Shown here in pieces: positions 52,713 through 56,127 of a DNA stretch of 64,000 nt (its first letter is position 1; every line of letters starts with the position of its first letter). This DNA is from an uncultured bacterium (GTDB lineage: Bacteria; Babelota; Babeliae; Babelales; Vermiphilaceae): assembly GCA_963707655.1 (NCBI GenBank), contig OY970172.1, positions 320,001 through 384,000 on the forward strand. The letters are read 5' to 3'. A program made the translations under genes and the position numbers. Under the pieces are notes generated by a model. The model was given only the letters and a program-made list of their open reading frames with translations, was not told the origin of the DNA and did not search any database.

Positions 52713-53210
52713 ATGATAATTCTGGGCATCGATCCGGGATTTCAGGTCACCGGTTATGGTATTGTTAAAAAAGAGGGAAGCAAGTCTTACTTAATCGACT
52801 GCGGTTACCTTAAAATGAGTTCAACAAAAACATTATCATATCGCATAGGCATATTTTATAATTTTTTCACGAATAAAATTAAAGAGGCAAGTGTCACTAA
52901 TATTGCTCTTGAAACCCCGTTCTTGGGAAAAAACGCCCAAAACTTTCTCAAATTAGGGTATCTGCGTGGCATATTATATCTTCTTGCCGAGCAACATCAG
53001 CTGCCATTGCATGAGTTTTCACCGACAGAAGTAAAATCATCATTAACCGGTTTCGGTGGCGCAAGCAAAGAACAAGTTGCACGCGTTATTTTACGGTTAT
53101 TTCCTCAATTACAAGCTCCCGATAAGGCTGACGTTACCGATGCAATTGCCGTAACCTTGTGCGGCTTATGGAAAAGCAACAGCAACATATTGCTCAATAA
53201 GATGAAATAA
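52713..53210 (+). CDS. ruvC: Holliday junction resolvase RuvC
   Basis: ILGIDPG, E, TGFGGASKEQV, DVTDAIAV. Confidence 0.95.
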   Translation: MIILGIDPGFQVTGYGIVKKEGSKSYLIDCGYLKMSSTKTLSYRIGIFYNFFTNKIKEASVTNIALETPFLGKNAQNFLKLGYLRGILYLLAEQHQLPLHEFSPTEVKSSLTGFGGASKEQVARVILRLFPQLQAPDKADVTDAIAVTLCGLWKSNSNILLNKMK

Positions 53211-53380
53211 TGAGTGATAAACAAACACTTTTTTAAAAATGAAAGTAATGTCTTGCTTTTGCTCCGGTGCTTTATTTACCTTGTAGGCATGAAGGGTCAC
53301 GGGGAAGGGACGTCTTAATGCCAGGTCTCATCATTATGGTGATGGGGCCAACCGCGCTATTAAAGGAAGGGAATGTGCTC

Positions 53381-53851
53381 ATGACAAAATTGGGCTTCAC
53401 CTATCCATCGTTTACTAGAAGCAATTTTATCTATATTCATGATCAAAGAATCAGTTCTCATGAAGAAATCATTGCGCTGCATGATATATTGCTTACTCCC
53501 GGTTTTCATTGTTTAAAAGCTAAGAATATGGCATCGGGCAGAGTTGTTGTTGATGTTTTTCTTATGTCATTAAATTGTTTTCACACTATCGGTTGCTTAA
53601 CTATGGAAAAACATCAGTTACCCTGCAATATACAAAATATATATCAACAGTTAGAGCAGGGGGACTATCTATCTCAAGGGGCGGATGGGATAGAGAATTT
53701 TCTTGTTGATGCTTTTTACTGCGATTTTCTTTTCATTGAAATGCAGCCCATGCTCATGAGTAGCCGTTGGTTCCCCGTACTACAACAAAAAATGATTGAT
53801 TTAAAACTCGATCAGGCAATTCCTATTATTTATCTGATATATGAATATTAA
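53381..53851 (+). CDS. Hypothetical protein
   Basis: ORF with purine-rich RBS before ATG 53381. Confidence 0.65.
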   Translation: MTKLGFTYPSFTRSNFIYIHDQRISSHEEIIALHDILLTPGFHCLKAKNMASGRVVVDVFLMSLNCFHTIGCLTMEKHQLPCNIQNIYQQLEQGDYLSQGADGIENFLVDAFYCDFLFIEMQPMLMSSRWFPVLQQKMIDLKLDQAIPIIYLIYEY

Positions 53852-54633
53852 TCTTTCCATTCGTCAGGCGTTTCTTCTGCCTCTTCTTCTAATGATCCGC
53901 CTTTATCTTTAATAATTTGCTTGATCAGATTTTCTTTATCTGTTAATTGGTCAATTTTTTCTTGATCAACAGAACCAAACATTACTTTTGTTCCCTCAGT
54001 GACCAAAGCAGCACTATTCTTTTTATATTCTGCTTTCAGTTGATCAACCGTCATAGTTCTTAATGAGATCAAAAGCTCAATATGCTCTTTTTGTGTGACC
54101 AGAGAGCGTTTTTTCAACTGTGTTTTACTGTTTTCGATTTGTTGCTTAACGTTTGTCAATTCTGCCTTTAACTGTTCTATGTTCATAGAATCAAAACGTC
54201 GTAAAACTTCTCGGGCAACTTCAGGTTTTTTCAAAGGAGCACCTTTTCTTATTCCCTCTAAGAATTCATCACGATCACCGGTAGGTTCTTTCGTCTGCGG
54301 AGAGGTTTTTGGCTCTTCTGCCGGCAGTTGTTCTTCTTTCGGCTTTTCTACGGGAGGAGCTTTTTGCGCCGGTGGAGGAGGTGGCGGAGTAGGGACGTTT
54401 GGTTCAACGACGGGCAATTTTTCTTTCTTCTGTGCTTCTTTTAATGATTTAACCGCATCATATTGTTTTGACAGTACTGCTATATTTTTCTCTATATCGG
54501 CAATCTGTTTTTCAGTTTTTTCTTCAAACAATCGTATGTCTTGATCCAAGTTTTTGATTTCTTCAGACACGGTGGCAACAAGAACAGAGGAATGAAAGAA
54601 GAAACTGAACAGGAGAATAGAAATGCGCTTCAT
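53848..54633 (-). CDS. Secreted WASP/RickA-like protein (coiled coil, poly-Pro, WH2, acidic-Trp tail)
   Basis: MKRISILLFSFFF signal; PTPPPPPPA; GDRDEFLEGIRKGAPLKK; C-terminal EEEAEETPDEWKD. Confidence 0.75.
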   Translation of the reverse strand: MKRISILLFSFFFHSSVLVATVSEEIKNLDQDIRLFEEKTEKQIADIEKNIAVLSKQYDAVKSLKEAQKKEKLPVVEPNVPTPPPPPPAQKAPPVEKPKEEQLPAEEPKTSPQTKEPTGDRDEFLEGIRKGAPLKKPEVAREVLRRFDSMNIEQLKAELTNVKQQIENSKTQLKKRSLVTQKEHIELLISLRTMTVDQLKAEYKKNSAALVTEGTKVMFGSVDQEKIDQLTDKENLIKQIIKDKGGSLEEEAEETPDEWKD

Positions 54634-54651
54634 ACATTGCCTTTCTAAATC

Positions 54652-54679
54652 AGAGCCGATAAGAGCTATTATGTTAAAA
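54652..54679 (+). other. dif-like XerC/D site
   Basis: agagccgataa-gagcta-ttatgttaaaa (11-6-11); right arm 1 nt from E. coli TTATGTTAAAT. Confidence 0.7.
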
Positions 54680-55762
54680 GAGACTGCTGCTGCACAATAA
54701 CAAATCTCCAATAAACAAGGGAGAAAAACTATGTTTCTTACCGACATACTCTTTTTTTATTTCATATGTCTTTACATTATAACTCAAGATAACAAAAAGG
54801 TTTTCATCATAGTCAACAAAATAAATTTTCCCCTCATGATAGCGTGGCAATAATGGGGCCAAAGACTCAGTCAGCCGCTCTGTTGTATCTCCCGCCACAA
54901 AACAATACGGAATTTTAAAAGAAAATGCTTTTTCATAGCGCCACACCTCTGCTCTCTTTTCAATATAATAAGCATCAAACATGCACGCTGTAGCGTCATA
55001 ATTTATCACAAATCCAGAATTCTCCGATGTCATTGATAATGATACCGGAGAATGAATTTCATCAAAACCCAATAAGAGAGATTGTTGCTGCAATGTGCCC
55101 TGTGCTCTTGATTCATTTTTTTTACCTAACAAGCGTGCTACTCTCTCATCAAAAGTGTCTAGCGCATTAAAATTATTCTCTTCAGAAAGCGGTATAGATG
55201 GATATGTGCTGTGCATTAACACACAACCACTTTCATTATTATTGTGTTTAATATAATAAAGAGAATCAGTAATTTTTTGTGGATATATTAAATCATAATG
55301 CTCATCCTGCACCACAGCCTCAAGCTCGCCGGTAATAGTAAGATGAAAAATCGCATAATGCCCATATTGTTTAGCGCATACATACAGTGAGTTTCTATCT
55401 ATCCATGAAAATGAAAGAATATCATAAATAGGAGAATCTATATCTATACTCATTACCGAGCGCTTATCAAAGAACTTTACCCGTATTCTGCCCTGATCCA
55501 AAAAACTAATTCCTTCTTGATTTGGTACCAATGTCAAAAGCGTGGGATTAAGATGACTGGGCAGCCCTTTAAAAAAATTATTATTGTGTACATCCCATAC
55601 CCATACTTCAAGACGTTTATCAATCTTTTGATGCACCAAATAGACCATGGGCGCATCGGGCTTGCCTATCCATAGACAAGGATACAGATAAGGACCATCA
55701 AAACTGAAACAGGAAGAAGACGACGACAATAAAAGCATGCAAAACAGAAAAAAGAGCTTCAT
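54674..55762 (-). CDS. Exported hypothetical protein (beta-rich, possibly propeller)
   Basis: 362-aa ORF with signal peptide. Confidence 0.7.
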   Translation of the reverse strand: MKLFFLFCMLLLSSSSSCFSFDGPYLYPCLWIGKPDAPMVYLVHQKIDKRLEVWVWDVHNNNFFKGLPSHLNPTLLTLVPNQEGISFLDQGRIRVKFFDKRSVMSIDIDSPIYDILSFSWIDRNSLYVCAKQYGHYAIFHLTITGELEAVVQDEHYDLIYPQKITDSLYYIKHNNNESGCVLMHSTYPSIPLSEENNFNALDTFDERVARLLGKKNESRAQGTLQQQSLLLGFDEIHSPVSLSMTSENSGFVINYDATACMFDAYYIEKRAEVWRYEKAFSFKIPYCFVAGDTTERLTESLAPLLPRYHEGKIYFVDYDENLFVILSYNVKTYEIKKEYVGKKHSFSPLFIGDLLLCSSSLF

Positions 55763-55855
55763 TGGTAATCCTTTTCTTAATCCTCATCGTAGATAGCCTT
55801 GTTATACAGTAACAAAAAGCGAGGCAAAAAAGTAAAATTTATTTGAAAAACCCGC

Positions 55856-55965
55856 AAAAAAAATCCACCGCACTGACCGAAATCAATGCGATGGAAAAAA
55901 GGAGAGTAGTAATGAAGCCTAATTGACAGAATAAATACTTGTGGGTTACCCCCAAGACTTATACT
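55856..55965 (-). ncRNA. Candidate small RNA (~110 nt)
   Basis: Own promoter, GUAA-tetraloop hairpin, anti-SD single strand, terminator with G-U pairs and U8 tail. Confidence 0.65.
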
Positions 55966-55971
55966 GGAATA

Positions 55972-56000
55972 ATAGTATTAATAAATAGTTCAAATGTCAA
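55972..56000 (-). promoter_or_regulatory. sigma70 promoter for the candidate sRNA
   Basis: TTGACA (56000-55995)-N17-TACTAT (55977-55972). Confidence 0.7.
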
Positions 56001-56127
56001 ATTTAAAAATTATTAAATTGATAGAAATATCAAATAAAATAGCTAATCATTCTCTTATAGAATAGCTTATTTTTTATGTCTGTCAATAGATAACGCTTTA
56101 AGAATTGGCTTACATAAAGGCATCATT

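Follow-up and report, generated by a model that had tools for sequence, protein, structure and literature searches.

A putatively exported Babeliales protein with a WH2 motif and an acidic tryptophan tail: a candidate mimic of WASP-type actin nucleation-promoting factors

Introduction

Does a bacterium of a group that parasitizes protists export a protein imitating the actin-nucleating module of its host? This question is raised by a single gene, whose product is here designated P0001, in a 64,000-nucleotide stretch of an uncultured Babeliales bacterium (contig OY970172.1, positions 320,001 to 384,000; hereafter the window, to which all unprefixed coordinates refer). A reading made from the sequence alone (the sequence-only reading) had proposed that P0001 is a secreted actin nucleation-promoting factor resembling WASP or RickA, which would act as an effector on host actin.

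The source genome is a single contig of 1,091,075 bases with 41% G+C, belonging to Dependentiae/Babeliales. The Dependentiae (TM6) are described in the available portions of two papers as obligate intracellular parasites of protists (PMC4776705; PMC6561590), and a host-actin target is therefore sensible. The assignment agrees with DnaB: in a scan of genome contigs, 92 stretches encoded a relative of this protein, and among the 80 loci retained, the majority of those bearing a taxon name were labelled Candidatus Dependentiae, TM6, Babeliales or Vermiphilaceae. The actin family PF00022 had no match in any of the 261 Babeliales genomes searched. Our analysis partly supported the proposed interpretation. 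Judged from its motifs, P0001 probably manipulates the host cytoskeleton, and it would be a functional mimic that does not belong by descent to the WASP or RickA families.

Results

Organization of P0001

P0001 is the product of a 261-aa open reading frame (ORF) on the minus strand. If the ORF is extended to an ATG at 54747, it shares 74 nt with the upstream gene; the start was therefore set at 54633. The features of the gene are as follows, with identities referring to its homologue P0003 and structural statements to an AlphaFold2 (AF2) model. This model was built on a two-sequence alignment, and its mean predicted local distance difference test (pLDDT) value was 70.2.

53848..54633, minus strand: whole P0001 gene, 261 codons plus stop; the frame is kept open in the syntenic homologue P0003 on metagenome contig L088
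54574..54633, minus strand: signal-peptide-like N-terminus, residues 1-20, from the sequence and a crude hydrophobicity rule
54421..54573, minus strand: heptad-patterned coiled-coil helix, residues 21-71, within AF2 helix 2-71 (pLDDT 71-85); I/L/V/F heptad spacing judged from the sequence; 16% identity
54286..54420, minus strand: disordered Pro/Lys/Glu-rich region, residues 72-116 (to about 118), with pLDDT below 50 for 72-119; 33% identity
54370-54387, minus strand: PPPPPP, residues 83-88; the Pro run is conserved in P0003
54223..54285, minus strand: WH2 motif (Pfam PF02205), residues 117-137, a short helix FLEGIRKG followed by PLKKP; AF2 helix 119-129; 57% identity
53938..54222, minus strand: predicted folded helical region (AF2), residues 138-232, with both QLKAE repeats; 26% identity over 138-180 and 67% over the conserved core 181-213 (HIELLISL..MTVD.LK)
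53893..53937, minus strand: end of a C-like amphipathic helix, residues 233-247 (ENLIKQIIKDKGGS); 67% identity
53851..53892, minus strand: acidic tail with subterminal Trp, residues 248-261 (LEEEAEETPDEWKD), disordered in the model; 10 of 14 residues identical, Trp included (71%)

The elements named by the sequence-only reading were all recovered, at positions differing by no more than a few bases from those given. The N-terminus, MKRISILLFSFFFHSSVLVA followed by TV, comprises MKR, a hydrophobic core of 16 residues, and VLVA immediately before TV; it has K/R within the first eight residues, and its 10-residue Kyte-Doolittle mean peaks at 2.62. Since it contains no Cys, this signal-peptide-like start carries no lipobox. 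All signal-peptide calls, for P0001 as well as for the Babeliales ORFs below, were made with our own crude hydrophobicity rule. The predicted coiled coil is followed by the poly-proline stretch PTPPPPPPA (residues 81-89, 54367-54393) and by the WH2 core GDRDEFLEGIRKGAPLKK (residues 119-136, 54226-54279), the latter lying about 6 nt from where it had been placed. The two similar helices of the pattern M(N/T)(I/V)(E/D)QLKAE were found as MNIEQLKAE at residues 150-158 and MTVDQLKAE at 194-202. The protein ends with EEEAEETPDEWKD, an acidic terminus with a subterminal Trp. The spacer between WH2 and this end, already remarked upon as unusually long, measures 112 residues from LKK to the acidic run, which is far beyond the canonical range.

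The combination of these motifs in one protein exceeds chance. The six frames of the genome contain 1904 ORFs of 80 aa or more. Among these, a WH2 regular expression matched three, an acidic tail with Trp within the last five residues occurred in one, and a run of at least five Pro in one; P0001 was the sole ORF with the tail and likewise the sole one with the Pro run. Because the patterns were written after P0001 had been seen, this comparison serves as a descriptive control, not as a formal test.

A single full-length homologue

A word-indexed homology search returned only P0001 itself among 1562 candidates, as did a profile in the same search. No homologue was found in 40 relatives or in a scan of genome contigs, and the ESM Atlas gave no usable match. 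An exhaustive phmmer search of 1.84 billion representatives yielded one further match, P0002, a 59-aa fragment aligned with residues 200-261 (E 2.1e-7). The only full-length homologue was the 352-aa P0003, a member of the P0002 cluster, so that the homologue set consisted of two sequences. A metagenome scan with a first profile, in which low-complexity patterns were used, gave no match, and a scan with a later profile led to L088, the 1713-base contig carrying P0003. Another metagenome match, on contig L089, was rejected as spurious, as it covered 26 residues inside an unrelated 194-aa ORF. In addition, short contigs of 151-272 nt from three peat-metagenome runs were identical to parts of the WH2 gene (window 54213-54640); gaps in this coverage have no significance, and one of the runs may represent the sample of origin.

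On L088, the gene just upstream of P0003 is represented by its C-terminal part and encodes a homologue of the 362-aa protein found next to P0001; P0001 and P0003 are therefore syntenic. P0001 and P0003 share 40% identity over 167 residues (BLASTP E 3e-28), compared with 62% over 142 residues for the neighbour, which indicates that the P0001 gene evolves faster than the adjoining one. The order of signal peptide, coiled coil, poly-Pro, WH2 and acidic-Trp end is retained in P0003, and conservation is highest over the final 14 residues, which include the Trp.

P0003 also contains an additional, upstream WH2-like motif, LSDQIKGGTKLKPV, followed by a KRR helix and an acidic run without Trp (residues 105-155; L088:832-984, plus strand). 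By its sequence this unit looks like a decayed or partial second V-C-A module, that is, a WH2 motif (V), a C helix and an acidic end (A).

WH2 motif and acidic tail

The orthologous motif of P0003 scored 27.1 bits (E 3e-6) against PF02205, above the gathering score of 23.1 bits. A profile built from the C-terminal halves of P0001 and P0003 matched N-WASP (3m3n_W, E 3.2e-6) and Spire (3mn7_S, E 1.2e-5) in the PDB, with weaker matches to N-WASP 2vcp_D (E 0.035) and MIM 2d1k_C (E 0.44). The alignments were confined to the WH2 segment (profile positions 2-36). All four chains are WH2 repeats, and 3m3n_W, 3mn7_S and 2vcp_D were solved with actin. The P0001 motif stood in register with the N-WASP and Spire repeats and showed the expected structural elements, namely a short amphipathic helix, hydrophobic at positions i, i+1 and i+4, a Gly turn and LKK (FLEGIRKGAPLKK, residues 123-135). 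On this evidence we accept the WH2 motif of P0001 as genuine.

At the other end of the protein, eight of the 14 residues of the tail are acidic, with the Trp at position -3, and the arrangement is conserved in P0003. The C-like helix ahead of it, which ends at residue 243 (LIKQIIKDKGG), spaces its hydrophobic residues like a C helix but lacks the Arg pair. A profile of the C and A elements (CA profile) of nine canonical Babeliales proteins, run against 4902 ORFs with the composition correction switched off, ranked P0003 first (E 0.0021) and P0001 fourteenth (E 8.7), with its tail in register.

The spacer was modelled as confident helices in both P0001 and P0003, and the same helices appeared in both. 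As one alignment was common to the two models, they are not independent. In P0001 there are five helices, at 137-149, 152-168, 172-193, 196-219 and 224-243; the 10-residue pLDDT means reach 75-95 over residues 141-250, and residues 244-261 form the disordered tail. A Foldseek search against the PDB returned no match at E up to 0.001. The spacer was not assigned to a specific fold, as the structural matches (best Z 7.5) were generic long helices and a helical hairpin, in ribosomal uL29 and other proteins. A SAP domain on the QLKAE repeats was likewise rejected, with Pfam E values of 0.12 (P0001) and 0.077 (P0003), far under the cut-off.

WH2 and V-C-A proteins across Babeliales

PF02205 was matched at E up to 0.001 in 24 of the 261 Babeliales genomes, and over the cut-off in 20. 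None of 14 control genomes had a match at either level; at E up to 1, six of the 14 were matched, none over the cut-off. An ORF census of the 20 best loci gave 21 WH2-bearing ORFs, and a signal-peptide-like start was present in 14 of the 15 whose 5' end lay inside the locus. A canonical end, in which WH2 is followed by an RR helix, an acidic run and, 1-3 residues from the C-terminus, a Trp, was found in seven of the 21 ORFs (L095, L096, L098, L102, L107, L109 and L110), and every canonical V-C-A ORF with its 5' end in the locus had a signal-peptide-like start. In L093, L097 and L105 the acidic Trp lies farther in, 10 to 288 residues from the C-terminus.

One of these ORFs resembles the eukaryotic module from end to end: in L095, positions 6-80 of the last 80 residues (L095:1354-1593, minus strand) align with residues 426-501 of N-WASP in 6uhc_H, from WH2 to the last residue (E 3.7e-6). 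For the L096 protein there are three close relatives, of which two have a precomputed PF02205 match, and a more distant one, 61% identical, with no PF02205 on record. The only name given by a source for these relatives is 'hypothetical protein', on the distant one. Two related WH2 proteins, L104 and L108 (genomes G083 and G036), end in ...DEAW and ...DETW with the Trp as the last residue and without an RR C-like helix; these ends may be another tail variant.

The canonical Babeliales proteins and P0001 have the same order of elements: the start resembles a signal peptide, a short coiled coil and a Pro-rich stretch often follow, and WH2 and an acidic-Trp end come last. They differ in that the canonical modules are compact and have a C helix with RR, whereas P0001 shows neither trait. 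The distance from WH2 to Trp is 49-68 residues in eight canonical modules and 104 in one. P0001 and P0003 have an architecture in common with the canonical class, to which their homology was undetectable. Synteny of P0001 with the canonical VCA gene of L096 was looked for and rejected. Among the papers listed by our literature search, which covered articles without their supplements, none was found to link Dependentiae or Babeliales with WH2 or VCA motifs.

Comparison with known actin regulators

P0001 follows N-WASP VCA in the order of its elements, with a proline-rich region, WH2 (helix plus LKK), an acidic C-terminus and a Trp three residues from the end, and in the sequence of its WH2, at the profile E value of 3.2e-6 given above (PDB 3m3n; also 2vcp and 6uhc). 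Unlike WASP-family proteins, it has no WH1, GBD, SHD or other WASP-family N-terminal domain (WH2 was the only Pfam match), and it has a signal peptide, only a C-like element, and about 100 residues of predicted folded helices between V and CA. No similarity beyond WH2 was found to the WASP family proper (WASP, N-WASP, WAVE, WASH, WHAMM and JMY), and P0001 was not assigned to it.

Bacterial proteins of related design are already on record. According to the available part of PMC2440523, RickA has WH2, C and A behind a proline-rich region, is held to activate Arp2/3, and carries an N-terminal G-actin-binding domain and no signal sequence. As far as that text describes it, RickA resembles P0001 in being a bacterial protein with a proline-rich region ahead of WH2 and an acidic end, and differs from it in the signal peptide and coiled coil that P0001 possesses. 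Homology to RickA was not detected, the phmmer search of all representatives having matched P0002 only. The claimed likeness to WASP and RickA holds for the WH2, the Pro run and the acidic-Trp tail, which are present in P0001 and conserved in P0003, and does not extend to homology beyond the 20-residue WH2.

Other bacteria act on host actin with WH2-type proteins. Chlamydia TarP and Vibrio VopL/VopF are nucleators of this type. The Legionella effectors MavH and RavH are a further example and, in the excerpts available, are described as needing PI(3)P membranes (PMC10381072, PMC13481308), a difference from P0001. All of these resemble P0001 in coming from intracellular or amoeba-associated bacteria and in having WH2 or WH2-like motifs, and differ in their delivery by type III or type IV secretion systems (T3SS/T4SS), in Arp2/3-independent nucleation and in having no acidic-Trp tail. 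Arpin and cortactin show the opposite combination, an acidic stretch with a Trp contacting Arp2/3 and no WH2; of the two, Arpin is an Arp2/3 inhibitor, and cortactin activates the complex weakly and in a filament-dependent manner. They share the acidic-Trp stretch with P0001, which has WH2 in addition.

Export and genomic context

Components of the type II secretion system (T2SS) encoded in the genome comprise two secretins, one intact T2SSE ATPase and two T2SSF-type proteins. These genes agree with the set for T2SS and type IV pili (T4P), with two gspD copies, that is reported as core in TM6 in the available part of PMC4776705. A second T2SSE homologue (PF00437; G000:C1:764698-765845, minus strand, outside the window) contains the in-frame stops TGA, TAG and TAA, which may reflect a broken gene or a frameshift that arose in sequencing. 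For Chromulinavorax, the accessible text of PMC6561590 reports signal peptides in 44% of coding sequences and the observation of outer-membrane vesicles; the word 'actin' does not occur in it.

The P0001 gene is flanked by housekeeping genes, with dnaB, a methyltransferase gene and ruvC on one side and recF and dnaN on the other. Two features adjoin it upstream:

54674..55762, minus strand: 362-aa signal-peptide protein with no Pfam family, 40 nt upstream of the P0001 gene on the same strand
55864..55895, minus strand: terminator-like hairpin of 14 pairs with a T run, between recF and the 362-aa gene, found by consensus scan only

Judged from this spacing, the 362-aa gene is probably co-transcribed with that of P0001, and the hairpin may mark the upstream edge of the transcription unit. 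The 362-aa protein adjoins the WH2 gene on L088 too (62% identity) and is present in the same-genus genome G001 (42%). On the plus strand, a conserved ORF at window 53267-53851, with a 160-aa homologue in G001 and no Pfam match, converges on the P0001 gene; at its stop codon, this ORF shares 4 nt with the 3' end of the P0001 gene.

Compared with G001, the ruvC-recF stretch (window 53200-56100) is a variable island of secreted proteins. The G001 island (L086 = G001:C56:10000-17643; L087 = G001:C49:1-6000) contains an outer-membrane beta-barrel gene (PF13505, 29.7 bits), seemingly two copies of the 360-aa gene, one of them cut by a contig end, and a gene for a 132-aa signal-peptide protein. This last protein has a similar MSVEDLK motif and was considered as a relative of P0001, which was rejected at a BLASTP E value of 0.45.

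Discussion

We tentatively favour the reading, at somewhat less than an even chance, that P0001 is an exported effector which would bind host G-actin through WH2 and Arp2/3 through its last helix and acidic-Trp tail, that is, a WASP-type mimic with a folded insert. From the sequence, a cleavable-looking signal peptide would carry the protein across the inner membrane, and the T2SS/T4P-type machinery of the genome or outer-membrane vesicles could then release it towards the host. There, PPPPPP might recruit profilin-actin or SH3 proteins, the single WH2 would bind one actin monomer, and the conserved last helix and acidic tail with Trp259 would dock on Arp2/3, which would make P0001 a class I nucleation-promoting factor. 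The N-terminal coiled coil may pair two copies of P0001; a two-copy complex prediction for residues 21-75 scored 0.01, which is uninformative either way. More speculatively, the approximately 105 residues of predicted helices between V and the tail may position or mask the C-like helix.

A number of results weigh against this reading. The Pfam WH2 model, suggested beforehand as a check, gave a divided answer, since the counterpart in P0003 passed the cut-off whereas P0001 itself scored 19.2 bits (E 9.6e-4), or 21.7 bits in a six-frame genome search, both below 23.1. A Pro follows LKK in the P0001 motif, where the AF2 confidence is only about 55. The C-like helix has K-D-K where canonical modules carry RR, the CA profile in its default form left P0001 and P0003 unmatched among the 4902 ORFs at E up to 10, and the 42-residue P0001 tail matched no WASP-family chain in the PDB. 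For these three reasons, the C element of P0001 is to be regarded as only C-like and unproven. WASP-type architecture is found as canonical secreted V-C-A modules in related genomes, with the canonical C element not recovered in P0001 itself. WH2 and Trp stand 134 residues apart in P0001 and 151 in P0003, and the WH2 of P0001 is not within tens of residues of C as in a V-C-A module. Residues 194-246 were modelled as a helical hairpin in which the C-like helix packs on the conserved MTVDQLK helix. With respect to export, the signal peptide would indicate passage to the periplasm, not delivery into the host. Finally, the family was detected by the profile of the P0001 and P0003 C-terminal halves in one of the 261 Babeliales genomes, its own, and was absent from the 260 others. 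G001, which is 87% complete and has a DnaB 90% identical, carries the flanking genes within 51 nt of each other without a WH2 gene between them, and no match was found elsewhere in that assembly. The gene is therefore dispensable and lineage-restricted.

Part of this evidence would fit an actin binder or nucleator working without Arp2/3, in which the coiled coil gathers several WH2 motifs for sequestering or for nucleation in the manner of TarP, VopL/VopF, MavH or RavH, and the tail serves another purpose. Statistical support exists for WH2 alone, the CA profile did not recover the C element, the V-to-CA spacing is non-canonical, P0001 has a heptad coiled coil, and P0003, with its two WH2 motifs, is nearer to the tandem-WH2 nucleators. 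Nevertheless, we consider this somewhat unlikely, because oligomerization is only presumed, the same type of tail ends the canonical V-C-A modules in Babeliales, and conservation reaches its maximum, 71%, in the 14-residue terminus with the Trp, so that the tail needs a partner. That partner need not be an activated Arp2/3 complex. W-acidic motifs recruit kinesin light chain or coat adaptors, and an A-motif of the Arpin/cortactin type might block Arp2/3, with WH2 merely tethering actin. The conserved, disordered tail, the C-like helix without the Arg pair of the canonical modules and the missing sequence tie between the tail and WASP CA would all agree with such a role. However, poly-Pro and WH2 in the WASP order would then be hard to account for, and the Lys after the Trp and the Asp/Glu two residues before it fit W-acidic kinesin motifs poorly; we rate this reading as improbable.

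A role unrelated to actin, with P0001 as a fast-evolving periplasmic or envelope coiled-coil protein whose motifs resemble WH2 and A by chance, is also improbable in our estimation. It would be in keeping with the sub-threshold WH2 score of P0001, the K/E-rich composition, the tiny family absent from the sister species, a secretion into the host that is presumed only, and the ability of the WH2 model to match six of the 14 control genomes at E up to 1, albeit none over the cut-off. Against it, the three motifs occur together in one of 1904 ORFs and form conserved islands between proteins of 40% identity, the orthologue P0003 passes the Pfam cut-off, the control genomes have no match at E up to 0.001, and canonical VCA proteins are present in the same order.

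Going beyond the preferred reading of P0001 as a WASP-type mimic, the Dependentiae as a group might deploy Sec-exported mimics of the eukaryotic WASP VCA module against protist hosts, with P0001 and P0003 as a regulated version in which the C-like helix is packed in the folded insert, so that Arp2/3 activation would be masked until a host cue or membrane opens it. We regard this as unlikely at present. If true, the masked version would parallel WASP autoinhibition in a bacterium, by means of parts unrelated to it.

Bacterial WASP mimicry is an already known kind of strategy, and P0001 would be a variant of that kind. Almost nothing is known about how the Dependentiae, a widespread phylum of obligate protist parasites, handle their hosts. 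Should actin and Arp2/3 prove to be the targets of P0001 and of the canonical V-C-A proteins, one more bacterial phylum would have evolved or acquired WASP mimicry, with delivery by signal peptide, not by type III or type IV injection or an autotransporter. The Babeliales proteins would then provide a natural set of compact and variant VCA designs, one of them with a folded insert between V and CA, with which the control of Arp2/3 activation by spacing and masking could be studied.

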